A stretch of 64,000 nt of DNA, taken from positions 7,068,001-7,132,000 of the forward strand of contig JANJGN010000034.1 of the NCBI GenBank assembly GCA_026770705.1. Direction: 5' to 3'. The translations under genes were made by a program, and so were the position numbers. The DNA comes from Isurus oxyrinchus (lineage: Eukaryota). The notes beneath the pieces are model-generated. The model did no database searches. It saw only the letters and a list, made by a program, of their open reading frames with translations, and was not told the origin of the DNA. Below are positions 1,280 to 63,074 of this stretch, one piece after another (position 1 is the stretch's first letter; each line of letters opens with the position of its first letter).

Positions 1280-1294
1280 AAAATGTAAAGAAGG
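1280..1294 (+). CDS. Micro-exon Q1 (15 nt), (E)NVKK
   Basis: ttaccgattcacag|AAAATGTAAAGAAGG|gtaagt; identical in 3 copies. Confidence 0.8.
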
Positions 1295-4200
1295 GTAAGT
1301 ATAAGTAAGTTACAGAAAATCTACTTGTAAAGCAAAATAAATAAGTTGCCCTAAAAATTCATCACTGGTGCAATCGGCCCAATATCCCGTCAAGTATGCT
1401 GCTTTTGTCGAAGATAGAGTTAATTCCCTTTTTTCACGTCCTTCTGTGACATCACCCTTCCCCATCTGTGTAACCTTCCACAGCTAAAAATGCATTTTTA
1501 ATCTACCTAATTTGCTTCCGTAGTTTCTGATTTAGTACTTTTCCAGTCCCCACATCTACACGCTTAAGACATTCCCTAAAAACTGTCCCTCAGAGTGGTC
1601 AGCCTTGATACCTTTTATAATATCTCTCAACCTGTTCGTTGTGGTTCTGTTACTATTTCTTCCATATCCATGAATGTTTCTGCCTTCTTTGTCATTGTCT
1701 GTTTAGTATAAGTATATTAACCTCTTCAGCCTAATCCAAAAAAAAGCTCATATCGCATGAAGCTCCCCAGGGGACATTGGAGTGGAATGAACATGAGCCA
1801 GGATGTGACCACTTCGAAAAGCGCACCTTTTTAAGAGAACCTGGAAGGCTGATTAAGCGCACACCTGATAGGCTTTGATGCTCATATTGCTTCTCTCTGC
1901 ATTCCAGAGCTAGGCATCTGCCAAGATACCATAAAAGATTTAGGTGAGCCAATCACTTTTGATGCCTGCTGAATTTACCGACCATTTGCTTTACTCTTAA
2001 ATCAAGCAAAGCTCCAAGTGTTTCCAAAGCACAACAGAGAAAGAAGAATTCTGGAGCATTAATGCAGTTTTTTTAATAAAAGGTCAACTTTAAAGCAATG
2101 ACAGATTTGTTCTCTATGGGGAGCTGAACTGTCAGTCAAAGTGTTTTCGTGCAAAACTCGGTCAGAATCTAGGCAAGTGACTTTATGGATTGTTCATTGT
2201 TCAGAATGATTCACATAGACCATATCATGGATAAAACTTCGCCTGCGTTGGAGCACCAGTTGCTGGCATTCAATTGACAGACTGATGTAGGTTCATGTGT
2301 GTAATCAGCTGCATGAATACAATGGAAGTGAATAATTGGGGTGCGTATATAATCTTCCCTCTCTATGACATGGAACATTTTGCCAGGCTCCCCAAAATGG
2401 AAATTCATCGTGTAGAGCTTGGTTACAGTGATTGGTTTTACACATATGGTTCTGAATCAGCACTTGCCATCACATATCGCCAATTTTAATTGTTGTTGTC
2501 TCCAAGGTAAAAAAAAGACCTGTACCTTTTTGACGGAAAGTACGATAAAAAAGAACGGTTATATGACCATAGGAATGCAGCTTCATTTCTGTTATCTCCA
2601 GGCTCCATGGTGTGCATTTCCCTCCTATAGAGCCACTGCGAAGTAAAGAGGAAAATTTCAAGATTCATTCTTGTTTGAGCGATAAGATCAGGAGCAAGTT
2701 GCCAGCTAGCAACGAATAAATGGCTGTTCTCAATTTTCCATGAGCTGTTCCATACAAGTTTCACTGTGTTCCACATGCTCAAGGAGAGTTGTGTTTGCCC
2801 TGCACTATCACCCACATGCAGAATAGCTTGAATTCCAGTGAGAACATTTCCACGTTAGGTCGTAGAAACGTTCATTTTATTATTGATTCTTGATTTGTTT
2901 CACAGATAAATTAAGAAAAGGTAAGAGGAAATATGATCTAGTACGTGACCATCTAAATGGATGAAAAGAAAGATGAGTAAAGATGGATTCGCAGTGATTA
3001 CACATTCCAACTTAAAGTAACTTTTAAATTGTCATTATTATATCTAAAGCTCTCTGTGGGCTCGCCCTTCCAAAAATGCCATGAGAATCCTCTGGCCATA
3101 CAACTGGCTGCAAGTTCTGTGTTCACACCACGCTGGTTTTGTTCAGATTGCGCTGTTCCTTCACCATACCAATGGCGTTTTATGGCTTCTGCAATATGTC
3201 CGAAGTCTCCGAAGCATGTTTGCTAAACTTTGCACCTCAAAGTCCCCTTCCGACTTTAATAATCACATATTTCCTGGGCGGTTTCCAAAGTCCATCCCTT
3301 GTCCTCACCCGGGAGTCTGGCTAATAATTGAAGTTTTGTTTAAAACATGATGAAAAACATTGAGGCTCCTTACGCCCTGTGGCACTTCGGTTACCGAGAA
3401 GGCCTGTTAGGAAACTTAAAAATACTGAGCATACGATGCTTCGGCAAACGTGTCCTCAGAACAAGCAAGGGAATACATGGCATCTTAAACAACACAGTGG
3501 CTCTTCTGGCGAACGAAGGCTGCAGCAGAAACAAACCTCCAATCGTATTCGTTTTTTTGCCATTGTACCAAGTTGTCATTCTCTAAAGACATGCATGGAA
3601 GTTGCTGTGCAATGGTCTCTCCATCCTTAAATTTCGCTCGAACGGGCATCTTTCTTTCCGAGCCCATCTACCATGCCATCAGATCACCAGCGAATGGTGC
3701 AGGGAGCATTGTTGTCTTGTATCGAAACTATTACTTGAAATATGCTTGCACTGCATTTGGTCATTTGAGAAAGTGAGCATTCGAAGGTCGCAAAACCAAA
3801 ACTAAGAGGACGCTCATGATTTGTTATTTGTCCATGATTTCCACCTTACTGTACGGGACTGCAATATGGAAAACGTTCAAGTGGCACCTCAAGGGGACTG
3901 GCTGCGAAAGAAATTGCATATTTAGTGTGAGGGCTGACCAGCGAAATCTAGTACCCACTTACAAACAGGCAGCATAGGCTTTGGATCTATGCTCATATGC
4001 GATCAGCTTCAGTGAGTCCAGCTGTCAGGTATCAGGCTCACAAATCAGGTATTGTTCTCCAAAGTTATACAGGACAGACGCACCAGAGAGGGCAGAAAAA
4101 GATTTAATGAATGTGCTGAAAAGCAACATGAAGAAAATGAATTATTCACATCGACACCTCGATGGACACCGTTTATGGAGTAAGCCAAATGGCACCAGGC

Positions 4201-7200
4201 CCTATAGGATGGACGCCAACAATTTGAGTCTGAACAACTACAAAGTGATTAGAAAAAACAAGAGGGGCCAAAGGAAAACAGCATGACCCAAATTAATGAT
4301 ACAAGACCTGACATCCAACAAGGCAACAAATGCCTTGGGTGCATGAAGACTACAGGTCCCGAATATGCCTTTTCATCCATCTCAGGCTCATGGAAGACAA
4401 TCGTCCTCGCTACTGAGGCATTGCCAGTAATAACAGGAATTGCAAGCAATTAATCACGTGTCCCGATGTGGCCTCATGTTGCATCTGCACCAGTTTTGTC
4501 GAAACTGCTTCCGTTGTAACAATTTTGGTGTTTTCCTAATAAGGTCACGATATTCATGCAAATTGTCCTTTCCTGTCAACAGTCTACTTTCAACCTCTAC
4601 CAGCAAGTTTCTGCAACAAAATCTGAGGAAACAGTTGCCCACAGGATGAAAATTTTTACGGAAGAGAAACTAAACATTTGTAACATAAACGAAGAACACA
4701 GCTTGTCATAGATCAGTTACAGAAAAGAAAGAGGCCGTCTGGCTCTTCTTGTCGGAGGCAAATCTCTGGGTCAGTATCTCGGCTGTTCCCATGCTCCAGA
4801 CCTTCACCTGCAGTGTATGCAACTCGCTTGTTATTCAAAGAATTACCCAGCTCCAAATTAAAAGCCACGATTGTCCCTTCGCAGAGCTCATTCTAAAGCA
4901 TTGCCTTTTGGAACCTGATGATGTGCTGCACATTTATTTTTCCCCATGTCCCCTTTAGTTTTCTGTCAGTTAACGTTAAATTAATGTCTTCCAGTTCTTG
5001 ACCATTCCAGATGGAACAGTCTATACCTGCCTAACATGTCCAGGCCTCGTCATGAATTTTATAAGCCCCATCAAATCTTCTTTCAATCATATTGTATCTA
5101 TGTACAACCGCTATAAATTCTCAATTCCTTTCACCTGGAAGAAGCAATCATCTCTGGAAACATTCCCATGAATACAATCTCTACACTCTCTAACACTATG
5201 ACTTCTCCCTAAACTATGATGTCCAAAACCTGATCCAATTCCCTAGTTGAAGTCGAACTAGCGGTTAAACAGTTTTACCATAACTTCCTTTCTTTGCTGC
5301 CTATTCATCTATTTATGAAGCCGAATATTTCAACTGGCTTAGTGACAGCGTTTTCAATCTGCCCTGCATCTTGCAACCATTTGTGCTCAGAAACTCCCAA
5401 AGACCCATAAACAGCTTCAATCCACTTTGGAAAACTGTCACAAGTTGTTCATTACCTCTTCCTACCAAAATGTATCACTTCATGCCTCTCGCCACTAATT
5501 TCAATTGAAAAGTTCCTCCCATTCCACCAGTCCATCTGCGTCCATTTGTCCTATTTCACCATCTTCCTTGCAATTCATAGCCCTGTAAAATCTGTAAACT
5601 TTGAAGTTTTGCCCTGTACACTCAGGTCGAGGTCGCTGATGCATACCATGTAGATAGATTGAAAGGGGGAAACTGCGCAACTTTGTTGACACTTCAGTGT
5701 GGATTATCCATTTTATGAATTACAGAGCTAAGCGATTGTCAACAAGCTGTTAAAGGCCTAGGTGAGCAAAATATTCCTGGTGTCGCTTTAGATTAACATG
5801 CCTCATTATTTTGAACCATTAAGCAAATACTTTTGTTTTCGTTAAAAAGTGAAGTAATTCAGGCAAACATTGTTTAGCGATAGGCCCACATTCGCTTCTT
5901 TGGATTTCAATTAAAAAAAATGTTGGGATCAAAGCAAAACAGGCTGACCGTCCAAAAGTGGGCAGAATGAATTTCTGATGCTCCATGCATCATGATAATT
6001 GAAGCTTTTTGTCACAACTCTTATGAATCCTGCATACTAACGGAATGATGACTTTTAACTTTATCGATTTGGCACCAAGTTGGCAAAGTGTTCTAACCAA
6101 TAACGAAACTCCGCCCACCCGTGAAAAGTGTTGTTTAATCCTACAATTTTTGGTCTCTTTATTATGTAATCCCGAACAGAACAAAAACTGACTGCAAAAG
6201 AAAAAGGTACCTGATCTGACAATTTTTTCTTCAAAAAGACAGAGATTGACAATGGCGATTGCTTCTTTACATGATTAGTTTTGTTGTCGTATGAATGTTT
6301 TATGTTTTTTTTTTTACTAAGCAGATTGCTAGTGGGTACCCTAAGGGTTGGCAGCAGAAGAATCCGATACGTGGGCTATATAGTTTCGAGTTAGGAGAAC
6401 ATATTTTCCTATACTGTGTCACACAAATTTGCAAAACATAAATAACATGTAAACTAATCAACTGAATAAGGAATTCCCTTAATGCTCCTTCAACAAGGCA
6501 GTAGTAACAAGGAGGTACCCGCTAAAACAGTGAAGTTAGAAATGAAATGTATGTGGTGGTTAAGAATGACAGGTTTGCTGATAGAGTTTATGAAGGAGTT
6601 CTTGTGACGCTGTTGTGGAGTCACAAATTTCGGCCAGAAGCTCTCCTTTCAAGTCTCACTTCAGGACTTGCTGGCTGTTGAAGCTGTTTTTGTAAGGTGG
6701 CCGGCTGTATTGGTTACCATCTTGTAAAACCTTTCAATGGGCCTGGCGGCAGGTTCTAAGGACGGGAGAGATGCTGGCTCATCAGACAGCAGAAAGAAAC
6801 GTCAAGTGACTGTCGTACTTTGCCAAGCATAATCATGGCCAAATCCAATGGACATCCATGATCACTAACACCCTCTCAATGCAAGTTACCTGGAAAAGCA
6901 GGAATGAAATAATGTACATGGTACGTTGCTCTGATGGAGGATAGGCTTAGGCATGGGACACTTGACTGGAAGGACAGATATTTTCCGCTAATTGATATGG
7001 GTCAGACTACACACTCGGTGCAAAATTCATTAGATTTAATTCATTTTTTTGAAATGTAACTCACTCCAAATTGGTAAGGAAAAATGACAGAACACCCTCC
7101 ATAGTTGATCGGTGATGTACCTAGCCAGGGGGAAGCACAGTGTATCTACTTAAATAATGTCATTGAACAATCGTTACCGGGAAGTATTTGGCAAAGTCCC

Positions 7201-10200
7201 GCAATAAAAGAAAATCTGCAAAAGCATTTGGTTTTATGGTTGCGCAAGTTAATTTGCTAACAGAAGCACGGTGCATGTTACTAATTGAGACTTACAGCGC
7301 TAGTAAAGATGGAATTATGTGATGTCTTATTTTTTTAAACATGTAAGATATGCTAGTAAAATATACTAAAGCATGCCATGCATCGATTGGATGGCAGACT
7401 TGGGGAGATTCAATGTAATGTCTCTGTATGTTGCTGCCCATCCGGTACTCAAGTAAGGTGACTGATGCCAACCTTGTGCTTATGGCTACTGCAACCCCAG
7501 CACTCTGCAATGTTTATTATGTGCTTTTCATTAAAATGGAGTACGAAATGGCGGCCCAAATTAGACCTCGTATTTTCATGAATATGATACAAGGATCAGC
7601 TGGGGGAAATATTCTGCCATTATTTATGGGTAGGATAAGTCAGTGATTCATGGGGATGTGAGCGGAAGTACATATGGTAATATGAGATGCATTATGTCGA
7701 TGTATGGAACATGTGGACGGACATAATCCACTTTGTCAAATAAATTGAACAGTACTGTAAAATCTGTATGGTAATTCGGTAGGATGGGGGGGCAGGAGGG
7801 AGAGGGGGAAGCGGTCTGAAATTGAAATAATGAAGAAACTGTCAATTCTCATTATTCCAGAGATTCTAACGTGCAAAGAGTCTTTAAAGGATTCAGGTGG
7901 GAAATATGTTTGTTATTTGATTAAAATACCCGCTGCACAAAATATTCCTACAATTCCTAGCCCACAGGTAGAATACGGAAATGCCGATCAGTAATTTTAA
8001 ATATACAGAAGTAAACTTTGCCTGCATCATTTAGTTACCCAGTAAAGAACGAGGCCAACCCTCCACCTTACCTGCTACTGCTATATGAAAGAGTTTTATC
8101 TCTCTCCATCTCTCTCTCTCTCTCTCTTATAAGCTGTGTTTCAGAAATCTTTTCATGCAACCTTCTAAACGCTTGTTCTACACAATACGGTGCTGCTTCC
8201 CACCTATCCCCTCGGCCCACCCTATGCTTTGTCTATGAATAACCATACATCTGTGTTTCTTTGTTGCTGGTTGTACTGGACTTACAAACCTTTAATTGTT
8301 ATTTAATTTCTTAAGAATGATGGTCTGATAATATTGGGCGTCATTATCATAGGGTCTATTAACATTTTTGCCATGATCAGAAACATATCAGCTCCCCTCC
8401 ACTGTCTATATAACTGCCCGCCCTGGTACTGTCGATTAAATCTTCCCTGTGCGCCCAACACGATTTGTGAATAATTGCAAAGCATGGTGCGTCGAATTTG
8501 ACTACATATACTAAAGTGGTGCATATTAAACAACAAACATGGAGAATCTGCATTGAATGTCAATGTATTGGTTAGATACACATCTTCAGCGGCGAGTTCT
8601 CCGTCAATTGTTGATCACGACTAATGTGTGGCATGGTTAGCTGAGCTGGTTGTCTGGCGGAGCGTGGAATGGAGGGCCATTGCAATAGGGTCAGTTTCAC
8701 GCTACATCCAAGGATCACTATTTACCACTATATGTAGCATGATCTACATTATTGTATTGTTGCAGAGGAATGCACGTAGCAGTATGCTTGACATAGCAAC
8801 ATTTTAAAAATGTACATCCACCTGCAAACACGTGGCTTTGCATATAAAAAATGAACTGTTTCAATGAGTCCACAATCTTCCCGTTAACGTCTTGCCTTGA
8901 CAGAAACAAAGCTGGAAGGCCAAGAAAAAGGTAGGCAGTTTAAGGGTTCACTGTTTTAAAAAGACAGAAATTAATGTGTTACGAATATACCTATGCATCT
9001 TTTGTTTCATGATTAACTTCTCTGAAATAGAATTTAGCGTTATTAACGGGAAGAGCGGTTGCATTTGGTAATGGGCTCTATATGGAGAAAATGGTTCAGC
9101 TTGATGTCACAGCCAAAGCTGAGAGCCAGTTATGTTGGAGTTTAACACTAATCCAACCTGATACTCAGGAGGAAAGTATTCATCAACAAAACGACCAGAA
9201 TTTGGAATTCGCTGCTGCGTCATCCTTTGTTAAACGGAATTTTACAACTTTTTTTAAAGTCCAAAGACAGTTATCCACCGAGATCCGACGAAAGTTCAAG
9301 CGACTTGATTATCCAGGAGTAAACTTCGTGTGGTCCATGAAAATTTCACTTCAGCATTTTCAACTCCAGAGTAATGACCCACGTGAATTGTTAAGCAAGT
9401 GTACCTTGTGTTTGCATTCTGGTGTAAAGACTGTTACTACCAAAAAATAACGATGCCTTCACTTGTAGACATGCTCAGTTTTTGGGTCATGACTTCATAA
9501 GGATACATGTTGAACTCTAAATATCCAGACTGTGTAACTTCAGTTGGTTTGCAGTCGTTTCAGGGGCCATGTGTGATTGAAACGAGTGACGATAACTAGT
9601 GCCCCCTTATAAGCAGGCAACATAAGCTTTGGGTCTATGCTGATGTGCGATCAGATTCGGCGAGTTGGCACTTAGTTTGGCTGTCAGGTATCAGGCTCAC
9701 AATGCAGGTATTGTTCTCCAAGATTAGCAAGGACAGACGCACCAAAGGAGGGAAGAGGAAGCTCTTAAGGGATGTGCTGAAAAGCAACAAGAAAAAAATG
9801 AATTATTCATATCGGCACCTCGGTGGACACCGTTTAGGGTTTAAACAAAATGGCACCAGGCACCACAGGAAGGACCCCAGTAATTTGAGTCCGATCAACT
9901 ACAAAATGATTAGGAAAAACAGGAGGGGCCAAACGAAAACAGCATGACCCGAATTAATGATACAAGACCTGACGTCCAGCAAGGCAAGAAATGCCTTGGG
10001 TTCATGACGTCTACAGGTCTCGAATCTGTCTCTTCATCCAATTCAGGCTCATGGAAGACAATCGACCTCGCTAGTGAGGCGTAGCCAATAATAACAGTAT
10101 CTGCAAGCGAGCAGTCACGTGTCCCGATGTGGCCTCATGTTGCATGAGCTCCAGTTTTCTTCAAACTGTTTCCGTGGAAACAATTTTGGTGTTTTCCTAA

Positions 10201-47084: not shown

Positions 47085-47152
<68 letters not shown>

Positions 47153-53100: not shown

Positions 53101-56100
53101 ATTGGCCTAATTCTGCTATGATTTCTTGTGTTTTTACGTTGTCATGGGGCGAACATCACTATTTGTCCTTTTTCAAACTACACATAGACAGAGTCTATAC
53201 CAGCTCCATTGGATTGAGAATTATGAATACCTGGTTGTAATTACAAGAATCTCAGAGTTTTACTCGTTCATCCAGACTGCTGAACACATTGTTTTCTTTT
53301 GGAGAAAAAGCAGATTAATTGAAGAGTAAATACCTTAATGTCTACCTTTATTTGGATAACAATAACAGGAATGACCAGTCAATGATCAACAGTAAAAGGA
53401 AGAGAGAGTTGTCAACTTTGCTATGGGATGTCTGGTACCGAATTGCAGATCATTTTTTAATGCTCAGTGACATTCTACATCCTGTAACTTTTCTATTGCT
53501 TATATTTCCTTTACCGATTCACAGAAAATGTAAAGAAGGGTAAGTATAAGTATGTTACAGAAACTCAACTTGTAAAGCAAGATAAATAAGTTGCCCTAAA
53601 AATACATCCCTGGCGCAATCGCCCAATATCCCGTCAAGTATCTTGTCTGATGTCAACAATAGAGTTATTTCCCTTTTTTTCACGTCGCTCTGTGACATCC
53701 ACCTCCCAATCTGTGTAACCTTCCACGGCTCAAAAATCCTTTTTAATCCACCTATTTTGCTTCCTTATTTTGCTATTTAGTACTTTCCCAGTCCCCACCT
53801 CTATACGTTTATGACATTCCCTAAAAACTGTGCCTCAGTGTGATCAGCCTTGATACCTTGTATATCTCTCAACTTATTCGTTGTGGTTATGTTACTATTT
53901 TTCCATATCGATGTATGTTTCTGCCTTCTTCGTCGTTGTCTGTTTAGTAAAAGGATATTAACATCTTCAGCCAAATCCGAGGAAGGCTCATATCACATGA
54001 CGGTCACCACGAGACTTTGGAGTCGAATGAACATGAGCGAGGATGTGACATCTTTGAAAAACGTACCTATTTAAGAGAACCTGGAAGGGTGATTAAATAC
54101 ACACCTGATGGGCTTAAATACTCATGTTGTTTCTCTCTGCCTTCCAGAGCTAGGCAGCTGCCAAGATACTATAAAAGCTTTAGGTGAGCCAATCAGTTTT
54201 GATGCCTGCTGAATTTCCCGACTGTTTGTTTTACTCTTAAATCAAGCAAAGCTCTAAGTGTTTCGAAAGCACAACGGAGAAATAAAGATCCTGGAACATC
54301 AATGCGTTTCTTTTAATAGATGGTGAACTTTAAAGCAAAGACAGATTTGTTCTGTATGGGGAGCTAAACTGTCAATCAAACTGTTTTCGTGCAAATCTCG
54401 ATCAGAAGCTTGGCAAGTGACTTTATGGATTATCCATTTTTCAGAATGATTCACGTAGATCATATCATGTATAAAACGTCGCCTGCATTGGAGCACCAGT
54501 TGCTGGAATTCAATTGACAGACTGATGGAGGTTCACGTGTGTATTCAGCTGCATGACTACAATGGAAGTGAATATTTGGTGTGGGTGTATAATCCTCCCT
54601 CTCTACAACATTGAACATTTTGCCTGGCTCCCCAAAATGGAAATTCATTGTGTAGAGCTTGGTTACAGTCATTGTTTTTACCCATATGGTACCGAATCAG
54701 CACTCGCCATCAGAAATCGCCAATTTTAATTGTTTTTGGCTCCAAGGTAAAAAAAAAAACCTGTACCTTTTTCACGGAAATTACGAAAAAAAATAACGGT
54801 TATATGACCTGAGGAATGTAGCTGCATTTATGTTATCTCCATGCTCCATGGTGTGCACTTCCCTCCAATAGTGCCAATGCGAGGTAAAGAGGAGAACTTC
54901 ACTATTTATTCTTCTTTGAGCAATAAGATCGGTAGCAAGGTGCCAGCTCGCAGCGAATAAATGGCTGTTGTCAACTTTGCATGAGCTGTTCCATACAATT
55001 TTCACTCTGTTCAAAATTCTCAAGGAGAGTAGTGTTTGCCCTGCACTGTCGGCCACATGCAGAATAGTTTGAGTTTCAGTGATAACCTTTCCGAGGTGGG
55101 TCATGCAAACGTACATTTTATTATTTATTCTTGATTTGTTTCACAGATAAATTAAAAAAAGGTAAGTGCAAATATGCTCTAGCACGTGACCTCCTAAATG
55201 GATGAAAAAAAAGATGAGGAAAGATGGATTCGCAGTGACTACACTTTGGAATTTAAAGTAACTTTTTAAATTGCCATTAATATATCCAAATCCCTTTGTG
55301 GCCTCGCCCTTCCAAAAATGCCATGAGAATCCTCTGGCCTTACAACTGGCTGCAAGTTCTGTTTTCACACCACGTTAGTTTCAATCAGATCACGCTATTA
55401 CTTCACCATACCAAAGGTGTTTTATGCTTTTGCCATTTGTCCGAAATTTCGGAAGCATGTTTGCTAAACTTTGTGCATCAAACTCTCCTTCCTCCTTTAA
55501 TAACCACATAATTCCTGGGCGGTTTCCAAAGTCCTCCCCTCGTCGTCCCCCTGGAGTCTGGCCAATAATTAAAGTTTTGTTCAAAACATGGTGAAATGCA
55601 GTGAGGTTCCTTACGCCCTCTGGCACTTTGGTTACCAACGAGGCCTGCTAGGAACCTTAGAAATACTCAGCATATGATACTCTAGAAAACATGTCCTCAG
55701 AACAAGCAGGGGAATACAGGGCATTTTAAACAACTCAGTGGCTCTTCTGGCGACTGAAGCAGAAACAAAACTCCAATCGTTTTCGTTTTTTGCCATTGCA
55801 CCAAAGTGTCATTCTCTAAAGACATGCGTGGAAGTTGGTGCGCAATGGTTTTTCCATCCTAAAATTTCGCCCGAACAGGCATCTTTCTTTCCGAGCCCAT
55901 CTACCAGGCCATCAGGTGACCAGCAAATGGTGGAGGGAGCATTGTTGTGTTGTATCCAAACTATCACTTGAAATATGCTTGCACAACTTTTGGTCAATTG
56001 AGAAAGCGAGCAGTTAAAGGTCGCAACACCAAAACGGGGAGGAAGCTCATGATGTGTTATTTGTGTGTGATTCCCACCTTACTGTACGGAATTGCAATAT

Positions 56101-59100
56101 CGAAAACATAGAGGAGGCACCTCAAGGGCATTGGCTGTGAAACAAATTGCATATTACATGGGAGGGCAGACTGGCGAACCCTAGTGTCCACTTACAAGAA
56201 GGCAACATCAGCTTTGGGTTTGTGCTCATGTGCGATCAGTTTCGGCGAATTGGCACATAGTTCGGCTGTCAGGTATCAGGCTCACAAAGCAGATATTGTT
56301 CTCCAGAATTAGCCAGGACAGGTGCACCAGAGGAGGGGAGAGGACGCTCTTAAGGGATGTGCTGAAAAGCAACATGAAGAAAATGAATTATTCACATCGA
56401 CACCTCGGTGGACAACGCTTATGGATTAAGCCAAATGGCACCAGGCCCTATAGGAATGAGCCCTGCACTTTGAGTCCGAACAACTACAAAATGATTAGGA
56501 AAAACAAGAGGGTCCAAAGGAAAACAGCATGACCATAATTAATGAGGCACAGCCTGACTTCCAACAAGGCAACAAATGCCTTGGGTGCATGAAGTCTGCA
56601 TGTCCCGAATCTGCCTCTTCATCCATCTCAGACTCATGGAAGACAATCGTCCTCGCTAGTGAGGCATAGCCAGTAATAACAGTATCTGCAAGCAATTAAT
56701 CACGTGTCCCGATGTGGCCGCATGTTGCATCAGCTCCAGTTTTGTTGAAACTGTCTGCGTGTAAACAAGCTTGGTGTTTTTCTAATGAAGTCACTATATA
56801 CATGCAAATTGTCCTTTCCTGTCAACAGTCTACTTTCAGTCGCTGCCAGCAAGTTTCTGCTGCCAATCTGAGGAAACAGTTGTTCACAGGATTACGACTT
56901 GGGGGTTCTTACAGTACTGTAAACCATGTAGGAGAAAACCCTGTTTCCCGAAGGGGAACTAAACATTTGTAACATAAACAAAGAACACAGCTTGTCATAG
57001 ATCAGTTCCAGAAAAGAAAAAGCCCATCCAGCTCTTCGTGTCGAAGGCCTATCTCTGGGTCAGTATCTCAGATGTTCCCATGCTCCAGACCTTCACCTGC
57101 AGCGCATGCAACTTGCTGGCTATTCAAAGAATCACCCATTATTTATGGGTAGGATAAGTTGGCGCTTCAGGAGGAAGTGAGCGGAAGTACATATGGTAAT
57201 ATGATGCGCAGAAGGTCAACGTATGGAGTGTGTAGAAGGAAATAATCCGATTTGTCAAATACCTTGACCAGTACTGTAAATTCTGTATAGTAAATCGAGA
57301 AGGTGGCGGGTGGGGGAGGGGGGCGGGGGTCGGTGGGCAGAGAGAGGGGGAAACATGCTGAAATTGAAATAACGATGAAACTCTCACATCTCAATAATCT
57401 AGAGATTCTAACGTGCCAAGAGTCTTTAAAGGATGCAGGTGGGAAATATATTTCTTATTTGATTAAAATAGCCGCTGCACAAAATATTCCTGCAATTCAT
57501 AGCCTGCACGTAGAATACAGAAATGCCCATCAGTAATTTTAAATGTACAAATGTAAACTTTGCCTACATCATACGCTTTACCAAGCATAGAAAGAAGCAA
57601 ATCCTCCATCTTGCCTGTTACTGCTATATGAAAGAATTTTAACTCTCTCCATCTCTCTCACTCTCTCTCTCATTACCTGCGTTCCTGAAATCTTTTCACA
57701 CAACCTTGCAAATGATTCTTCTGCACAATAAGGTGTTGTTTCCCTCCAACCCCCTCCACCCCACCCTATGATTTGTCTATGAATAACCTTAAATCTGTGT
57801 TACTTTGTTGCTGGCGGTCTTGGACGTGCGAACCCTTTATTGTTATTTAATTTCTTATGAATGATGGTCTCATTATAAAGGGCATCATTATCATAGAGTC
57901 CATTAACATTTCTGCCATGATCAGAAAAATCTCCACTCCCCTCTGTCGTCTGTATAATTGACGCCCCTGGTACTGTCGAGTAAATCTTCCCTGTGCTCCC
58001 AACACGATTTGTGAATCATTGCAAAGCGTGGTGCTTCGAATTTGAATACAATATCCTAAATTGACGCATATTAAACAACAATCGTGGAGAAGCTGCATTG
58101 AGTGTCGACGTATTGGTTAGATACGCATCTTCAGCAGTGAGTTTTCCGTCAATTCTTGATCACGACTAATGTGTGGCACTTTTAGCTGAGCTGGTTGTCT
58201 GGCTGGGCGTGGAATGGACGGCCGTTGCAATTGGGTCAGTGTCACGCTACAGTGCAGGATCACTATATGCAGCATGATCTACCTTATTTTATTATTGAGG
58301 TATGCACGCAGCAGTATGCTTGACATAGCAACATGTTAAAAATGTAAATCTACCTGCAAACATTTGGCTTCTCATATATAAAATCAAATGTTTCAATGAT
58401 TCCACAATCTTTCTGTTAATGCCATGCCTTGACAGAAGCAAAGCTGGAAGACAAAGAAAAAGGTAGGCAGTTTAAGGGTTCACTGTTTTAAAAAGACAGA
58501 AATTAACGTGTAAGGAACATACCTATGCGTCTTTTGTTCTATGATTAACTTCTCTGAAAGAGCATTTAGCATTATTAACCGGAAGATCGGCTGAATTTGG
58601 TAATGGGCTATATGTGGAGAAAATGTTTCAGTTTGAGGTCCCAGCCAAAGTTGAGAGCCAGAAAGTTCAGAGTTTAACATTAATCCAACCTGACACTCAG
58701 GAGGAAAGTATTGATCTATACAACGACTAGAATTTGGGATTCGCTGCTGCATCATCGTTTGTTGTACGGAATTTTGCAACTTTTTTTTTAAGGCCTAGAA
58801 CACTTATCCACAGTGATCCCACGAAAGTTCATGCGACTTGATTATCATGGAGTAAATGTAATGCCGTCCCCACGAAAATTTTACTTCAGCATTGTCAACC
58901 CCAGATTAATGACCCACGTGAATTTTTAAGCATGTTTACCTCGTGCTTGCAGTCTGGTTTAAAGACTGTGCTACCACAAAATAACGATGCCTTCCTTTGT
59001 AGACATGTTCAGGCTTTGAGTCATGAGTTCATAAGGAGGCATGTTGGTCTCTAAATATCTCCGCTGTGTAACCTCAGTTGGTTTGCTGTCGTTTCAGTGG

Positions 59101-62100
59101 CCATGAGTGATCGAAATGTGTTACGAACTCTAGTGCCCCCTTCCCAGCAGGCAACATAAGCTTTGGGTCTATGCTGATGTGCGATCCGCTTCAGCGAGTT
59201 GGCACATAGTTCAGCTGTCAGGTATCAGGCTCACAATGCAGGTATTCTTCTCCAAGATTAGCCAGGACAGATGAACCGGAGGAGGGTAGAGCAACTCTTA
59301 AGGGATATGCTGAAAAGCAGCAAGAAGAAAATGAATTATTCACATCGACACCTCGGTGGACACCGTTTATGGATTAAGCAAAAAGGCACCAGGCCCTAGA
59401 GGAAGGACCTCAGCAACTTGAGTCCGAACAACTACAAAATGATTAGAAAAAAAAAGAGCGACCAAAGGAAAACAGCATGACCCGAATTAATGATACAAGA
59501 CCTGACATCCAGCAAGGCAACAAATGCCATGGGTGCATGAAATCTACAGGTCCCAAATCAGCCTCTTCATCCATCTCAGGCTCATGGAAGATAATCGTCC
59601 TCGCTAGTGAGGCATAGGCAGTAATAACAGTATCGGGAAGCAATCAATCACATGTTCCGATGTGGCCTCATGTTGCATTAGCTCCAGTTCTGTTGAAACT
59701 GTTTCCGTTAAAACAATTTGGTGTTTTGCTAATAAAGTCACTATATACATGCAAATTGTCTTTCCTTTCAACAGTCTACTTTCAATCTCTACCAGCACGT
59801 TTCTGCTGCCAAACTGAGGAAACAGTTACTCACAGGTTGACGTCTAGGGGATTCTTACAGTACACTTAACCATGTGGTAAAAAACCATGTTTCCCGAAGA
59901 GAAACTAAACATTTGTAACATAATCAAAAATACGGCTTGTCATAGATCGGTTACAGCAAAGAAAGAGGCCATCCGGCTCTTTGTGTCGGAGGTGGATCTC
60001 TGGGTCAGTATCTCGACTGTTCCCATGCTCCAGACCTCCATCTGCAGCGCATGCAACTTGGTGCTATTCAAAGAATTACCCAGCTCCCTATTAATGCCAC
60101 CATTGTCCCTTTGCCGAGCTCATTATTAGGCATTGCATTTTGGAGCCTAATGATGTGTTGCACATTTATTTTTCCCCATGTTCCCTTTGGCTTTCTGTCA
60201 GTTAACATTAAATTAATGTCTTCCGGTTCTTGACCATTCCAGATGGAACAGTCTACTCCTGCCCAACATGTCCAGGCCACGTCGTGAATTTGAAAAGCCC
60301 CATCAAATCTTCTTTCAATCATATTGTATCTATGTACAATCGCTCTAAATTCTCAATTCTTTCCACCTGGAAGAAACAATCATCTCTGGAAACATTCCCA
60401 TGAATGCAAGCTCTACACTCTTTAACACCTTCACTTCTCCCTAAACTATGATGTGCAAAATATGATACAATTCCCTAGTTGAAGTCGAACTAGTGGTTAA
60501 ACAGTTTTACCATAACTTTCTTTCTTTGATGCGTATTCAGCGAATTATGAAGCCAAAGATTTCATCTGGTTTAGTGTTAGCCTTTTCAATCTCCCCTGCA
60601 TCTTGCAACAATTTGAGCTCTTATATTCCCAAAGCCCCAAACGTAGCTTCAATCCCCTTTGGAATGCTACCACAAGTTGTTCATTACCTCTTTCTACCAA
60701 AATGTATCATTTCATGCCTCTGTCCACTAATTTCAACTGCCATTGCTCATCCCATTCCATGAGTCCATCTGCGTCCATTTGACGTATTTCACCATCTTCC
60801 TTGCAATTCATAGCCTTGTAAAATCTGAAAACTTTGAAGGTTTGCCCTGGACGTGCAGGTTTAGGTTCTTGATGCATATTATGTAGATAGATTGGAAGGG
60901 GGAAACTGCGCAATTTTGTTGACACTTCAGTGTGGATTATCCATTTTATGAATTACAGAGCTAAGTGATTGTCAACAAGCTGTAAAAGACCTAGGTAAGA
61001 AAAATATTCCCGGTGTCACTTTAGAATACATGCTTTATTATCTTGAACCATTAAGCAAATACTTTTGTTTTTGTTAAAAAGTGGTCATCAATTCAGGCAC
61101 ACGTTGTTTGGTGATAGGCCCACATTCTCTTCTGTGGATTTCAATAAAATAAAATGTTGGGCTGAAATCAAAACAAGACGACCATCTGATAGTGGGCAGG
61201 ATGAATTTCCGTTGCTCCATATGTCATGATTATTGGCACTTTTTGTCGCAACTCTTACTCAATCCTGCACATTAACAGAATGATGACATTCTTATCTTTA
61301 TCGATTTGCACCAAGTTGGCAATGTGTGCTAACCAATAACAAAAATACGCACACTCGTGAAAAATGCTGTTTAATCCTACAATTTTTGGTTTGTTTATCA
61401 TTCAATCCCGAACAGAAGAAAAACTGACTGCAAAAGAAAAAGGTACCTGACCTGACATATTTGTCTTCAAAACACCAGATATTGATAATGGTTGGTTGCT
61501 TATTTACATGATTTGTTTAGCTTTCGTATGAATGTATTAATTTTCTTTTTAACTGAGCAGATTGCTAGAATGTACCCTAAGGGTTGGCAGCAGAAGAATC
61601 GTATATGTGGGCACCATAGTTTCGAGATAAGAGGGCATATTTTCCGATGCTGTGTCACACAATGTTGGAAGACAGTAAATAACATGTAAACTAATTAAAT
61701 GAATAAGGAATTCAGTTAATGCTCCTTCAAAAATGTAGTGGTAAAAATGAAGTACTCGCTAGTGCAGTGAAGTTAGAAATAAAACGTCTGTGGTGGTTAA
61801 GTATAACAGGGTTGCTGATAGAGTTTATGAAGGAGTTCTTGTGACGCCGTTGTGGAGTCACAAATTTCAGCCAGAAGCTCCGCGTTAAAGTCTCACTTCA
61901 GAACTTGATGTCTGTTGAAGCTGTTTTCGTAAGGTATTGGTTACCAACTTGTAAAACCTTCTAGTGCACCTGGCGGCAGGTGCTAAGAACGGGAGAAATG
62001 CTGGCCAGTCAGACTGCAGAAAGCAACGTCAAATCACTGTCGTATTTTGCCAAGCATAATCATGGCCAAATCCAATGGAAATCCATGTCCACCAACACGC

Positions 62101-63074
62101 TCTGAATACAAGCTACCTGGAAAAGTAGGAATGAAATAACGTATGGCCTAAGTTGCTCTGTTGGAGGGTAGGGTTAGGCATGTGACACTTGATTGGAAGG
62201 ACAGATATTTTCCGCTAATTTATGTGGGTCGGACTACCCTCTTGGTACCGAATTCATTAGATTTAAATCTTTTTATTAAAGGAACTCACTACAAATTGGT
62301 GTGGGAAAATGACAGAACGCCCTCTATAGTTGATCGGTGACGTGCCTAACCAGGGAGAAGCACTCTATATCTATGTAAAAAATGTAATTGAATAATCATT
62401 AACAGGATGAACTTGGCAAAGTCCCGCAGAAAAGGAAAATCTGCAAAAGCATTTGATTTCATGGCTGTGCAGTTTAATTTGCTAACAGAAGCACGGTGCG
62501 TGTTACTAATTGAGTCTTACAGCATCGTTAAAGATGGAATTATGCAATGTCTTATTTTTCAAGCATGTAAAATATACTAAAGCATGCCATGCAACTATTG
62601 GAGGACCATCTCGGGGACATTCAATGTGATGTCTCTGTATGTTACTGCCCAGTCTGTACTCAAGTAAGGTGACCGATGCCAGCCTCGTGCTCATTGCTAT
62701 TGCAACCCTAGCACTCTGCTCCTCGTTGAAATGGCGGCCCAAATTAGACCTCGTATTTTTATGAACATGATACAAGGATCAGCTGAGGTAAATATTCTGC
62801 CATTATTTATGGGTAGGTTAATTCGGCACTTCAGGAGGAAATGAGCGGGATTACATATTGTAATATGAAATGCAGGATGTCAAAGTAAAGAGCGCGTGGA
62901 AGGACATAATCCACTTTGTCGAATACCTTGACCAGTACTCTAAATTCTGTATTGTAATTCGGGAGGATGGGGGGAGGGAGATGGGGAAACGTGCTGAAAT
63001 TGAAATAATGATGAAACTCTCAAATCTTACTGTTCTAGAGATTCTAACGTGCCAAGAGTCTTTAAAGGATTCAG
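1280..63074 (+). CDS. Internal part of a large micro-exon gene encoding a long Cys-periodic heptad coiled coil (42 exons, ~414 aa in window; 5' and 3' ends outside window)
   Basis: 42 AG..GT-bounded segments of 15/27/36 nt, all phase 1-1, joining into one stop-free frame: ENVKK ELGICQDTIKDL DKLRK [ELSDCQQAVKDL EEKLTAKEK EILTC(K/Q)ESLKDS ETKLEGQEK]x3 ELNDCQDILKNF ENVKK ... Exons lack indels and show many synonymous changes while flanks diverge. Confidence 0.85.
1908..1943 (+). CDS. Micro-exon R1 (36 nt), ELGICQDTIKDL
   Basis: ttctctctgcattccag|...TTTAG|gtgagc. Confidence 0.85.
2906..2920 (+). CDS. Micro-exon S1 (15 nt), DKLRK
   Basis: tttgtttcacag|ATAAATTAAGAAAAG|gtaaga. Confidence 0.8.
3030..4435 (+). 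mobile_element. Decayed RTE-clade LINE 3' portion (long form also ~24560-25960, ~55270-56680; 5'-truncated form ~9598, 15282, 33770, 39465, 59130)
   Basis: Degenerate peptides AFGHLRK..PTLLYG, HIVRLSGIRLTKQILFS..RTRGGQR..DVLK resemble RTE RT C-terminus; 5' boundary approximate. Confidence 0.7.
5060..5560 (-). mobile_element. Decayed CR1-like LINE 3' fragment present in each ABCD unit just upstream of exon A
   Basis: Reverse complement resembles CR1 ..LVRPQLEYCVQFW.P..RKD..LERVQRR region; many stops. Confidence 0.6.
5726..5761 (+). CDS. Micro-exon A1 (36 nt), ELSDCQQAVKGL
   Basis: attacag|AGCTAAGC...GGCCTAG|gtgagc. Confidence 0.85.
6180..6206 (+). CDS. Micro-exon B1 (27 nt), EQKLTAKEK
   Basis: cccgaacag|...GAAAAAG|gtacct (weak but conserved donor). 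Confidence 0.75.
7861..7896 (+). CDS. Micro-exon C1 (36 nt), EILTCKESLKDS
   Basis: ctcattattccag|AGATTCT...GATTCAG|gtggga. Confidence 0.85.
8904..8930 (+). CDS. Micro-exon D1 (27 nt), ETKLEGQEK
   Basis: cttgccttgacag|AAACAAAG...GAAAAAG|gtaggc. Confidence 0.85.
11410..11445 (+). CDS. Micro-exon A2 (36 nt), ELSDCQQAVKDL
   Basis: tacag|...|gtgagc; paralog of A1. Confidence 0.85.
11878..11904 (+). CDS. Micro-exon B2 (27 nt), EEKLTAKEK
   Basis: gaacag|...|gtacct. Confidence 0.75.
13543..13578 (+). CDS. Micro-exon C2 (36 nt), EILTCKESLKDS
   Basis: ttccag|...|gtggga. Confidence 0.85.
14588..14614 (+). CDS. Micro-exon D2 (27 nt), ETKLEGQEK
   Basis: ttgacag|...|gtaggc. Confidence 0.85.
16957..16992 (+). 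CDS. Micro-exon A3 (36 nt), ELSDCQQAVKDL
   Basis: ttacag|...|gtgagc. Confidence 0.85.
17425..17451 (+). CDS. Micro-exon B3 (27 nt), EEKLTAKEK
   Basis: gaacag|...|gtacct; synonymous GAA>GAG vs B2. Confidence 0.75.
19120..19155 (+). CDS. Micro-exon C3 (36 nt), EILTCQESLKDS
   Basis: ctgttctag|...|gtgaga. Confidence 0.85.
20135..20161 (+). CDS. Micro-exon D3 (27 nt), ETKLEGQEK
   Basis: ttgacag|...|gtaggc; synonymous GGC>GGA. Confidence 0.85.
20496..20531 (+). CDS. Micro-exon P1 (36 nt), ELNDCQDILKNF
   Basis: tttcttttctattgacttcccag|...TTTCG|gtgaat. Confidence 0.85.
20930..22140 (+). mobile_element. Decayed CR1-like LINE RT fragment (also 1-600 and ~51630-52860)
   Basis: Degenerate CR1 RT landmarks (KMLESIIK, RKSCL.N, KVP, WL.NRKQR, VRPHLEYC). 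Confidence 0.65.
22820..22834 (+). CDS. Micro-exon Q2 (15 nt), ENVKK
   Basis: ttcacag|AAAATGTAAAGAAGG|gtaagt. Confidence 0.8.
23433..23468 (+). CDS. Micro-exon R2 (36 nt), ELGTCQDTTKYL
   Basis: tttctgcattccag|...|gtgagc. Confidence 0.85.
24434..24448 (+). CDS. Micro-exon S2 (15 nt), DKLRK
   Basis: tttcacag|ATAAATTAAGAAAAG|gtaagt. Confidence 0.8.
27251..27286 (+). CDS. Micro-exon A4 (36 nt), ELSDCQQAVKDL
   Basis: ttacag|...GACCTTG|gtgagc. Confidence 0.85.
27708..27734 (+). CDS. Micro-exon B4 (27 nt), EDKLTAKER
   Basis: gaacag|...|gtacct; conservative E>D, K>R. Confidence 0.75.
27787..29025 (-). mobile_element. Inverted Penelope 3' arm (linker + GIY-YIG + pLTR/3' end)
   Basis: 28168-29025 is the reverse complement of ~29593-30451; ORFs 28349-28648 and 28645-29034 match the + strand protein. 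Confidence 0.92.
27885..27923 (-). ncRNA. Minimal type-I hammerhead ribozyme motif of the Penelope pLTR
   Basis: Minus strand AGUU-CUGUUGA-A-GGGUC(AUGAG)GACUC-GAAACGUC-AACU: stem I AGUU/AACU, stem II GGGUC/GACUC, palindromic ACGU stem III; core CUGUUGA deviates from CUGANGA. Confidence 0.7.
29027..30301 (+). pseudogene. 5'-truncated, frameshifted Penelope-like RT + GIY-YIG endonuclease ORF
   Basis: QIKGVAMGTRMGPSYA and LRYIDD (RT), LPFLD..YYKPT..YL..SSHP (thumb), NLVYCIRCSQCGLLYIGET..R..EH and GLN (GIY-YIG); frameshifts near 29358 and 29795. Confidence 0.93.
32025..32060 (+). CDS. Micro-exon C4 (36 nt), EILTCQESLKDS
   Basis: ttattctag|...|gtggga; synonymous ACG>ACA. Confidence 0.85.
33074..33100 (+). 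CDS. Micro-exon D4 (27 nt), ETKLEGQEK
   Basis: tgacag|...|gtaggc. Confidence 0.85.
35604..35639 (+). CDS. Micro-exon A5 (36 nt), ELSDCQQAVKDL
   Basis: ttacag|...GACCTCG|gtaagc. Confidence 0.85.
36073..36099 (+). CDS. Micro-exon B5 (27 nt), EEKLTAKEK
   Basis: gaacag|...|gtacct. Confidence 0.75.
37730..37765 (+). CDS. Micro-exon C5 (36 nt), EILTCQKSLKDS
   Basis: ctattctag|...|gtggga. Confidence 0.85.
38776..38802 (+). CDS. Micro-exon D5 (27 nt), ETKLEGKEK
   Basis: tttgacag|...|gtaggc. Confidence 0.85.
41254..41289 (+). CDS. Micro-exon A6 (36 nt), ELSDCQQAVKDL
   Basis: ttacag|...|gtgagc. Confidence 0.85.
41715..41741 (+). CDS. Micro-exon B6 (27 nt), EDKQTGKEK
   Basis: gaacag|...|gtacct; core Leu>Gln variant. 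Confidence 0.7.
43339..43374 (+). CDS. Micro-exon C6 (36 nt), EILTCQESLKDS
   Basis: tattctag|...|gtggga. Confidence 0.85.
44389..44415 (+). CDS. Micro-exon D6 (27 nt), ETKLEDKEK
   Basis: cttgacag|...|gtaggc. Confidence 0.85.
45608..45634 (+). CDS. Single-copy micro-exon U (27 nt), ELNDIQQRC
   Basis: ttctctttctaccttag|AATTGAATGATATTCAGCAAAGGTGCA|gtgagt; strong sites; EL-x-D start resembles A/P exons. Confidence 0.75.
45905..46150 (+). mobile_element. Decayed tRNA-derived SINE, DeuSINE/SacSINE1-like
   Basis: B-box-like ggttgtgagttcaagtcc followed by gctgacac..cagtgcag..gtctgccctc..atgccac..gaagggaagtt.tcc..tgtgctgg, recalled similarity to shark Deu-domain SINEs. Confidence 0.55.
47064..47165. 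repeat. (CT)n microsatellite
   Basis: Direct observation. Confidence 0.95.
47201..47429. other. Assembly gap (229 N)
   Basis: Run of N. Confidence 1.
48749..48775 (+). CDS. Single-copy micro-exon V (27 nt), (K/E)ETYKAKEQ
   Basis: tttcactttcctctttaacag|AAGAAACATATAAAGCAAAAGAGCAAG|gtgaac; resembles B (EEKLTAKEK). Confidence 0.75.
49240..50930 (-). mobile_element. Decayed L2-like LINE RT fragment
   Basis: Minus strand ~49930-49965 reads FHMHADDTHI*L, matching the L2 FHxYADDTQLY motif; boundaries approximate. Confidence 0.6.
51199..51234 (+). CDS. Micro-exon P2 (36 nt), ELKDCQDILKNF
   Basis: ttttgcag|...|gtgaat; synonymous TGT>TGC and TTC>TTT vs P1. Confidence 0.85.
53525..53539 (+). CDS. Micro-exon Q3 (15 nt), ENVKK
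   Basis: ttcacag|AAAATGTAAAGAAGG|gtaagt. Confidence 0.8.
54148..54183 (+). CDS. Micro-exon R3 (36 nt), ELGSCQDTIKAL
   Basis: ctctctgccttccag|...|gtgagc. Confidence 0.85.
55147..55161 (+). CDS. Micro-exon S3 (15 nt), DKLKK
   Basis: tttcacag|ATAAATTAAAAAAAG|gtaagt; R>K. Confidence 0.8.
57403..57438 (+). CDS. Micro-exon C7 (36 nt), EILTCQESLKDA
   Basis: aatctag|...GATGCAG|gtggga. Confidence 0.8.
58436..58462 (+). CDS. Micro-exon D7 (27 nt), EAKLEDKEK
   Basis: cttgacag|...|gtaggc. Confidence 0.85.
60959..60994 (+). CDS. Micro-exon A7 (36 nt), ELSDCQQAVKDL
   Basis: ttacag|...|gtaaga; synonymous AGC>AGT. Confidence 0.85.
61416..61442 (+). CDS. Micro-exon B7 (27 nt), EEKLTAKEK
   Basis: gaacag|...|gtacct. 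Confidence 0.75.
63039..63074 (+). CDS. Micro-exon C8 (36 nt), EILTCQESLKDS
   Basis: tgttctag|...|gtggga. Confidence 0.85.

Follow-up and report, generated by a model that had tools for sequence, protein, structure and literature searches.

The combined results of this analysis suggest that the 64,000-nucleotide stretch of Isurus oxyrinchus DNA examined here (the window) is a middle slice, about 6%, of one giant protein-coding gene, spanning ~1.04 Mb on the + strand (C34:6,459,146-7,496,962), at least 98% of it intron. Judged from its sequence, the gene belongs to a cartilaginous-fish family and very probably encodes a coiled-coil rod ending in one B30.2 domain, with a total of ~300 micro-exons (264-283 on the + strand in the 850 kb scanned) that would probably be spliced into a mostly full-length product. 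The reading we favour, with a probability of roughly 0.55, is a length-tunable, probably secreted, disulfide-stapled rod with B30.2 heads.

Within the window, a homology-defined catalogue contains 42 micro-exons of ten types (A 15, B 36, C 15, D 36, E 27, F 36, G 27, H 27, I 27, and J 36 nt; Table 1) between positions 1280 and 63074 of the + strand, all flanked by AG and GT and all of phase 1-1. Together they cover 1242 nt, or 1.94% of the window, and their join reads as 413 aa with no stop, compared to 59 and 11 stops in the other two frames. The initial annotation had described 42 islands of 15, 27, or 36 nt in phase 1-1, a stop-free join of ~414 aa covering ~2% of the window, and a strict alternation of long and short exons with one exception, all of which the catalogue bears out; the exception is G-H-I (27-27-27) at 44389-48775, and the junction quoted there runs from D at 60994 to E at 61416. 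It had also confined the gene to the 64 kb and 42 exons in view, which proved too narrow, as the whole window lies inside an internal tandem array that extends over 173 kb and comprises 105 exons (~-65,400 to +107,300 in window coordinates). The unit at 11410..14614 is the youngest duplicate, being 98% like the unit at 8904. Alternation is preserved where H and I are missing upstream of J (20496) and where D and E were lost as a pair (57403..58462), and exon H has diverged counterparts outside the array at C34:6,993,458, 7,190,066, and 7,257,962. The AG..GT island at 46703..46727 was rejected as a live exon, having stops in the gene frame in 5/5 copies and an intron-like identity of 83.2%, and is taken as a dead or skipped exon. 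For window positions 1200-21000, the contigs of three putative RNA runs matched only as short repeat pieces with no GT-AG joint among the rows shown, and one DNA-sized run covered 30/30 bins, mostly at 90-95% likeness; these observations have no bearing on expression.

Table 1. Micro-exons of the window, the excluded island, and the terminal exon of the gene (window positions unless a contig is given).
Feature	Position	Strand	Components or remark
Exon A, 15 nt	1280..1294	+	homology catalogue
Exon B, 36 nt	1908..1943	+	homology catalogue
Exon C, 15 nt	2906..2920	+	homology catalogue
Exon D, 36 nt	5726..5761	+	homology catalogue
Exon E, 27 nt	6180..6206	+	homology catalogue
Exon F, 36 nt	7861..7896	+	homology catalogue
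Exon G, 27 nt	8904..8930	+	homology catalogue
D-G unit	11410..14614	+	D 11410-11445, E 11878-11904, F 13543-13578, G 14588-14614
D-G unit	16957..20161	+	D 16957-16992, E 17425-17451, F 19120-19155, G 20135-20161
J-A-B-C	20496..24448	+	J 20496-20531, A 22820-22834, B 23433-23468, C 24434-24448
D-G unit	27251..33100	+	D 27251-27286, E 27708-27734, F 32025-32060, G 33074-33100
D-G unit	35604..38802	+	D 35604-35639, E 36073-36099, F 37730-37765, G 38776-38802
D-G unit	41254..44415	+	D 41254-41289, E 41715-41741, F 43339-43374, G 44389-44415
Exon H, 27 nt	45608..45634	+	shortened long-type exon
AG..GT island, 25 nt	46703..46727	+	left out of exon count
Exon I, 27 nt	48749..48775	+	homology catalogue
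J-A-B-C	51199..55161	+	J 51199-51234, A 53525-53539, B 54148-54183, C 55147-55161
F-G	57403..58462	+	F 57403-57438, G 58436-58462
D-E-F	60959..63074	+	D 60959-60994, E 61416-61442, F 63039-63074
Terminal B30.2/SPRY exon	C34:7,496,442-7,496,962 (L063:4442-4962)	+	172 codons + stop

Across the 173-kb array, all 105 exon copies retain AG and GT and contain no stop, compared with 26/140 gap-free intronic windows. In an alignment of 17-18 copies, the 8/8 splice dinucleotides of exons D-G were invariant, while the invariant fraction was 2.3-2.6% for intronic AG (5/221) and GT (6/231). By the terms of the initial annotation, its reading would fail if the segments were no more conserved than the surrounding intron; copy-alignment identity was 82.6% in introns but reached 90.9% in exons and 95.5% in the donor hexamer. 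When splice sites were scanned generically, with no prior on length, 26/47 hits on the + strand had lengths of 15, 27, or 36 nt, versus 2/37 on the - strand. Amino-acid constraint in the array was modest (pN 0.085, pS 0.135, dN/dS 0.6, from non-independent pairs), mismatches were equal across codon positions (8.9/9.9/9.9%), and a microsatellite interrupts one F copy, with an intact duplicate adjoining it. Beyond the array, the exons keep their lengths and frame although the introns are unrelated: in-frame exon hits numbered 283 on the + strand versus 11 on the - strand at threshold 15, and 264 versus 2 at threshold 17, in a scan that covered 850 kb of the gene span and left out 188 kb. The stop-free state of these outer exons is circular because open-frame and composition filters chose them. 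Three trivial readings (chance, a non-coding satellite, and an assembly artefact) were rejected given the strand bias in exon length, the exon-versus-intron conservation, the exons persisting beyond the array, and the invariant splice dinucleotides.

The spliced rod has the periodicity of a coiled coil, with a Fourier peak at 3.5 residues (5.6x the mean) that becomes flat after shuffling, and with 0 Pro in 2,475 aa. The basic unit of 36+27 nt gives 21 residues, or three heptads, in which Leu, Ile, or Val fills the a positions while the d positions carry Cys/Leu, Leu/Ser, and Lys; Cys occupies position 5 in 76/113 36-nt exons, and most 21-residue units contain a cysteine. The 36+15 (17 aa) and 27+27 (18 aa) units introduce stammers and stutters. 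From the ~300 symmetric phase-1 micro-exons, the predicted rod would comprise roughly 2,900-3,000 residues.

A B30.2 exon downstream, as in butyrophilins, had been anticipated and was found at the gene end, where the last 24-, 30-, and 21-nt exons lead into it in frame (SPRY E 3.4e-12; best solved structure the BTN3A1 B30.2, E 5.8e-20). It closes with a stop, so that the alternative forecast of a CD23-like C-type lectin end fails. No second B30.2 lies within the contiguous block, where the largest inter-exon gap is 14.9 kb. No RNA data set was listed as carrying the terminal exon, which has no bearing on expression. At the other end, where the gene has 21-nt exons (a size that accounts for 12/278 exons in the scan), the first 21-nt heptad exon found starts at C34:6,459,146 (L102:3146). 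The Ig-V and transmembrane exons that the initial annotation had suggested looking for upstream did not appear in the 63 kb before it. The Ig search there gave 0 hits in 133 + strand frames (132 out of 155 listed frames of ≥62 aa plus one shorter; those omitted were short, low-complexity, or elsewhere) and 0 in 13 family models; this Ig-V negative covers the 63 kb and those models. A genome search for IgC2 (PF22705) placed none of its 110/110 scored candidates at C34:2.7-7.5 Mb, and the genome's cluster of IgC plus B30.2 is on a separate contig, C21; a genome-wide V-set search, with 150 of 3319 candidates scored, was swamped by other V-set loci. There was no Pfam match to RING or B-box upstream of the gene or in the family models, nothing above cut-off in 82 further frames at both 5' regions, no conserved hydrophobic (transmembrane) exon in the 5' regions searched, and no start or signal-peptide exon common to gene and paralog. 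Three candidates were rejected: a hydrophobic first exon at C34:6,421,477, because it lies inside the paralog's 3' flank; a 102-nt exon at L101:7948, frameshifted in the paralog; and a hydrophobic frame at L094:434-570, with neutral identity (81%), a stop in this copy, and its first ATG absent in the paralog.

Relatives were found among RefSeq and GenBank models of sharks, rays, skates, and chimaeras, under names such as 'nuclear-pore anchor-like' (XP_042192744.1), 'TRIM69-like' (XP_055510696.1), 'TRIM39-like' (XP_038672306-9), and 'A33-like' (XP_069775384-90), and as GCC29436.1. Cassettes of 9 and 12 residues set their versions apart: of the 18 blocks in which two models of the chimaera gene differ, four are clean 12-aa cassettes and four are clean 9-aa cassettes, and internal blocks of 9 aa (6 aa in one case) distinguish isoforms in chimaera, catshark, and electric ray. 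SPRY is the sole Pfam family in XP_042192744.1 (1697 aa), which scored 53 bits against the spliced rod (shuffles ≤23.5), while the skate XP_055510696.1 scored 39.7 (shuffles 24.3); among the 8 relatives so compared, 5 were not clearly above shuffles and one more only narrowly. Longer relatives of the B30.2 exon were searched for and none found, and a search at 933-2970 aa returned only two versions of the chimaera model (1,697-1,722 aa), whose first 251 aa had no match in the genome, as expected if coded by micro-exons. Anonymous SPRY clusters of 1,277-1,802 aa in the ESM Atlas (scores 0.79-0.92) are leads only, and a single-sequence fold of the skate protein (pLDDT 45) was too poor for use. 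In a B30.2 tree of 57/167 proteins, with rows picked by a family-seeded profile and a midpoint root, 12 family rows fell on one side of a 100/100 branch and 45 other hits on the other. The initial annotation had suggested an extended butyrophilin or BG family member or a new family; the heptad micro-exons and the downstream B30.2 stand, but on sequence grounds the gene is a separate cartilaginous-fish B30.2 lineage and not an extended butyrophilin or BG gene. A literature search, with a scope that excluded most subscription journals and supplements, found no paper on this family.

In the favoured reading, two chains would pair as a parallel dimer stapled by the d-position cysteines, ~0.4-0.45 micrometre long given the coiled-coil rise of 0.15 nm per residue, and the product, with B30.2 heads that would bind a protein partner, may serve a secretion or matrix as a fibre or long tether. 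Because all exons are neutral to the frame, the rod could change in length without being broken, whether by tandem duplication, by pairwise loss, or by the skipping of cassettes. For the family as a whole, we put secretion at or slightly below an even chance. The chicken zipper protein, which derives from a BG tail, is the model for a rather unlikely alternative, an intracellular rod with B30.2, that is, a free-standing butyrophilin/BG-type tail, cytosolic or membrane-anchored, serving as a cytoskeletal or innate-immune scaffold. Such a product would fit the cytosolic B30.2 of butyrophilins and TRIMs (PMC8813856), first exons that are 21-nt heptads as in BG genes (PMC4046983), the in-frame ATG in the first exon found, and the absence of a hydrophobic start from most family models, 2 relatives and one doubtful model, themselves automatic predictions, having one among the 20 subfamily proteins listed. 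The regular core-position cysteine, however, suits the secretory pathway better, as do the signal-like starts of two relatives, chimaera and skate (short and hydrophobic; hydropathy 2.9 over 11 residues and 1.5 over 19), the chimaera model also carrying furin-like sites at 18 and 60, and no transmembrane exon was found in the regions searched; the best hydropathy over 19 residues in those two relatives is 1.5-1.6.

The same contig holds four paralogous B30.2 exons, and the paralog upstream of this gene spans 1.55 Mb. In this paralog, ~244 kb separates two regions that adjoin each other at the gene's 5' end; therefore, this copy may have lost its first exons. That such a loss followed the duplication and left a young pseudogene or partial gene here, the paralog being the working copy, is quite improbable; the missing ~244 kb, the start exon that was not found, a heptad-like exon with a defective acceptor near the 5' junction (L102, about 110-131), and the dN/dS of 0.6 point that way. 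Against it, the intact B30.2 exon shares 92% identity with its counterpart in the paralog, which could itself have gained the extra 244 kb by expanding its exons; moreover, the likeness among array copies (77-98%, with a median of 82.7%, set beside 77-81% for paralog introns) indicates growth after or around the gene duplication, yet 105/105 splice-site pairs were kept. A pool of cassettes, in which each mRNA takes a small exon subset or an internal promoter so that the products are short rods of graded length, each with one B30.2, the full rod being rare, is very unlikely despite frame-neutral exons and family models of mostly just 200-460 aa differing by skipped 9-aa blocks, since alternation survives deletions of D+E and of H+I together, which suggests that neighbouring exons are read in order, the 1,697-1,722-aa chimaera model exists, and the short models may be 5'-truncated annotations.

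We suggest only tentatively that sharks, rays, and chimaeras possess an unrecognised class of secreted, disulfide-stapled, B30.2-tipped coiled-coil fibres that reach about half a micrometre at most, their genes being of megabase size with at least 300 micro-exons, with length set digitally by duplication or skipping of 36-/27-nt cassettes, and with five B30.2 ends over 4.8 Mb of one small contig. Such genes would be a test case for how hundreds of 15-36-nt exons in a row are spliced faithfully over kilobase introns and would illustrate coiled-coil growth through frame-neutral exon duplication. The exons are too small for gene finders, so annotation caught only the last exon or misnamed fragments, and the family's database entries are no more than fragments or bear the names of unrelated proteins.

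The frames and family models searched contained no Ig, RING, B-box, or lectin domain, and the gene is therefore not a butyrophilin, BG, TRIM, or CD23 gene; it would represent a new branch of the B30.2 superfamily, neither TRIM nor butyrophilin and possibly extracellular. Like butyrophilins (BTN/BTNL, e.g., human BTN3A1), it has heptad phase-1 micro-exons and, after them, a B30.2 on a single exon; in butyrophilins the heptads are few and come with IgV, IgC2, and a transmembrane segment (PMC4046983, PMC8813856), whereas this gene has ~300 exons, and neither an Ig nor a transmembrane exon turned up in the regions searched. BG genes and zipper protein contain a long coiled coil from split-codon micro-exons that vary in number from gene to gene (PMC4046983, PMC5938342). 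With chicken BG, the gene shares a long tail of many heptad micro-exons and 21-nt exons at the 5' end; chicken BG has IgV, a transmembrane segment, 13-36 exons mostly of 21 nt, and no B30.2, while here the code is 36/27/15 nt, the exon count ~10x higher, the terminal exon B30.2, and IgV not found. The order of coiled coil and then B30.2 recalls TRIM (PRY-SPRY) proteins, but no RING or B-box was found, and whereas CD23 and other stalk proteins of the type II C-type lectin kind end in a lectin domain, this gene ends in an SPRY exon. The closest likeness is to the cartilaginous-fish models, which share the B30.2 subfamily, the coiled coil before SPRY, and the 9- and 12-aa cassettes; none has RING, B-box, or Ig in Pfam, and the longest, at 1,722 aa, is about half of the coding potential of the locus. 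In scale only, the unrelated titin is comparable: titin/connectin has 300 exons in elephant shark and 363 in human (PMC12241362), and if spliced as read, this gene would be among the most exon-rich of vertebrates, in titin's range, while its 1.55-Mb paralog could exceed 363. Titin genes span 238-293 kb with domain-sized exons, compared with 1.04 Mb of micro-exons and introns here.

Cataloguing by homology identified 42 exons of ten types in the window, totalling 1242 nt and encoding 413 aa with 0 stops when joined; the remaining two frames contain 59 and 11 stops. A generic splice-site scan of the window, run without a length prior, gave matches of exactly 15, 27 or 36 nt in 26 of 47 cases on the forward strand compared to 2 of 37 on the reverse strand. 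The exon count, lengths, phase and alternation proposed in the initial annotation, with the single exception to the alternation, were all borne out by the catalogue. The micro-exon feature is real and much larger than reported there: the window, a tandem array of ~5.6-kb units in a 4.98-Gb genome, is far smaller than the gene, and exons run on at both sides.

The entire array (~173 kb) holds 105 exons. Although copies were located by ungapped likeness, with the AG and GT letters not required, both signals were intact in 105/105 exons and stops occurred in 0/105. Alignments of 17-18 copies showed few invariant dinucleotides in introns, at 5 of 221 AG and 6 of 231 GT; among 140 windows of 30 nt in introns, 26 were gap-free. 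Copies were 82.6% identical in introns, 90.9% in exons and 95.5% in the donor hexamer, the comparison of exon with intron being one that the initial annotation had named as a test of the gene. Exon losses by deletion came pairwise, preserving the alternation. On the other side, dN/dS in the array exons is only 0.6 with differences equal over the three codon positions, and a microsatellite disrupts one F copy, which adjoins an intact duplicate. Splice sites and frame are thus under tight selection and residues under loose selection. Two other elements were seen in the window. A 25-nt island, present in four other copies, has intact acceptor and donor in 5/5 but contains stops and is out of frame; it is read as a dead exon, though it might serve as a poison exon. 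A GC-rich insertion inside one E-F intron carries an inverted repeat of 861 bases (96.5%) and gives GIY-YIG matches that are weak and below cut-off; related copies are present elsewhere in the gene, and it resembles a young Penelope-type retroelement.

Diverged micro-exons were found on both flanks, where the introns are not array copies. The first 21-nt heptad exon found lies 1,037,817 bases from the last exon, and the micro-exon scan covered 849,817 of these bases. The trained scan, which selects open frame and composition with the reverse strand as control, returned 283 in-frame micro-exons on the forward strand vs 11 on the reverse at threshold 15, and 264 vs 2 at threshold 17, most commonly of 27 and 36 nt; because it filters for open frame, a stop-free series beyond the array carries no evidential weight. 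A contiguous block comprises 246 exons (2,475 aa) and extrapolation from the sampled upstream part adds ~54, giving an estimated total of ~300 exons and 2,900-3,000 residues. The biggest inter-exon gap in the block, 14.9 kb, and the finding of no second B30.2 inside it favour one gene. Two smaller internal tandem duplications of exon groups show the process behind the array at work in other parts of the gene.

Positions of the features in the shortfin mako genome (G000); C34 and C21 are contigs, L numbers are loci with local positions
Feature	Location	Strand	Remarks
Window	C34:7,068,001-7,132,000	+	within array
25-nt island	window 46703-46727		
GC-rich insertion	window 27789-30456		
First heptad exon found	C34:6,459,146		21 nt
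Tandem duplication	L051-L054 (C34:7.427-7.455 Mb)		~13.5 kb x three
Tandem duplication	C34:6.471-6.496 Mb		~15 kb x two
Intronic element	L029:3400-4500	-	presumably Harbinger/PIF-type transposon remnant, judged by eye
Paralogous B30.2 exons	C34:6.396, 4.817, 3.474, 2.709 Mb		identity 92-45%
B30.2 exons of this lineage	C34:2.71-7.50 Mb		five, 0.77-1.58 Mb apart, two on - strand
Nearest paralog	C34:~4.84 to 6.40 Mb		span ~1.55 Mb
Paralog's 3' flank	C34 up to 6,433.5 kb		
GPCR-like frame	L095:857-1582		broken, rhodopsin family, weak 7tm_1 matches, downstream of paralog
Ordinary B30.2 cluster	C21:82-118 Mb		very large; most of 150 scored matches, with IgC2 exons; probably TRIM and butyrophilin region

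The encoded rod contains no proline, and its hydrophobic periodicity peaks at 3.5 residues (5.6x the mean), becoming flat on shuffling. Within the 21-residue unit, hydrophobic residues occupy position 2 in 87% of exons, position 9 in 90% and position 16 in 81%; Cys fills position 5 in 76/113, position 12 is chiefly Leu or Ser and position 19 chiefly Lys; from their spacing, positions 2/9/16 and 5/12/19 are the a and d positions. Beta-branched residues at a with Leu at d favour parallel dimers in coiled coils, and cysteines at d can form interchain disulfides. The exons, their frame and periodicity, the selection on splice sites, the B30.2 end, the paralogs and the relatives are all shown by the sequences. 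The composite reading we favour on top of these, with a probability of roughly 0.55, is that the micro-exons would be spliced in genomic order into a parallel dimeric rod of ~0.4-0.45 micrometre, that exon duplication and skipping would tune its length, and that the rod would be secreted and stapled by disulfides, its B30.2 heads binding a partner. The same heptads could form an intracellular BG/zipper-like scaffold, which we consider unlikely given the d-position cysteines and the hydrophobic starts of relatives described below.

At the 3' end, the last micro-exons (24, 30 and 21 nt) join in frame to a terminal exon of 172 codons plus stop, with polyadenylation signals near. This exon encodes a B30.2 domain, with a Pfam SPRY match at E 3.4e-12 and BTN3A1 B30.2 as the best match among solved structures, as the initial annotation had suggested seeking downstream; the Ig exons to be sought upstream were not found, with no Ig, RING or B-box in the 63 kb upstream of the first heptad exon (133 frames scanned) and no IgC at C34:2.7-7.5 Mb. 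Four paralogous B30.2 exons lie on the same contig. The nearest paralog, whose last micro-exon was seen, may hold more exons than the studied gene; it is longer by about 244 kb at the studied gene's 5' end point, and no start exon common to the two was found. A young, 5'-truncated pseudogene would suit this end of the gene, but appears improbable beside the intact splice sites and frame of every array exon.

The closest named B30.2 relatives were all from cartilaginous fish (bamboo shark, catshark, epaulette shark, basking shark, electric ray, little skate and elephant shark), and three further close relatives were Logan proteins without a name. A tree of 57 of 167 proteins, isoform duplicates dropped, placed 12 rows including the studied gene on one side of a 100/100 branch vs the 45 other matches. 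No RING, B-box or Ig was found in the relatives scanned. The rod motif occurs 57 times in the studied gene and eight times in the elephant shark (chimaera) model XP_042192744.1; this model matched the studied rod far above shuffles, as did the skate model XP_055510696.1, while of the other six relatives one was narrowly above and five were not. At residues ~900-1180 the interior of the chimaera rod also contains a low-complexity Thr/Asp/Lys/Pro tandem repeat and 40-residue repeats, both absent from the studied exons. The chimaera and skate models each open with a brief hydrophobic stretch resembling a signal peptide, followed in the chimaera model by furin-like sites. Versions and isoforms of the relatives differ, in the protein models, by clean 9- and 12-residue cassettes, which equal the 27- and 36-nt exons in size and are an indirect hint of a like exon structure. 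A cassette pool giving short products might also yield such isoforms, although this is the least probable explanation. In the ESM Atlas, chordate clusters of SPRY proteins (1,277-1,802 aa, 55-137 members) carry generic coiled-coil names, one being "isoform X51"; they may belong to the cartilaginous-fish coiled-coil/B30.2 family or to a parallel family of other fish.

Of the kinship with butyrophilins and BG genes proposed in the initial annotation, the heptad-plus-B30.2 tail of butyrophilins stands, here enlarged many times over; the studied gene differs in that the search for Ig was negative in the regions scanned, and no transmembrane exon was found. Cartilaginous fish have ordinary butyrophilins according to the accessible text of a 2026 survey (PMC12841164), which there makes no mention of a coiled-coil/B30.2 lineage. 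The literature searched, in its accessible text, yielded no paper on such a family, and supplementary gene lists could include members. Titin has 363 exons in human and 300 in elephant shark (PMC12241362). BG genes have 13-36 exons, mainly of 21 nt, without B30.2 (PMC4046983, PMC5938342, PMC8813856), whereas the studied gene has an estimated ~300, mainly of 27 and 36 nt, and B30.2 at its end.
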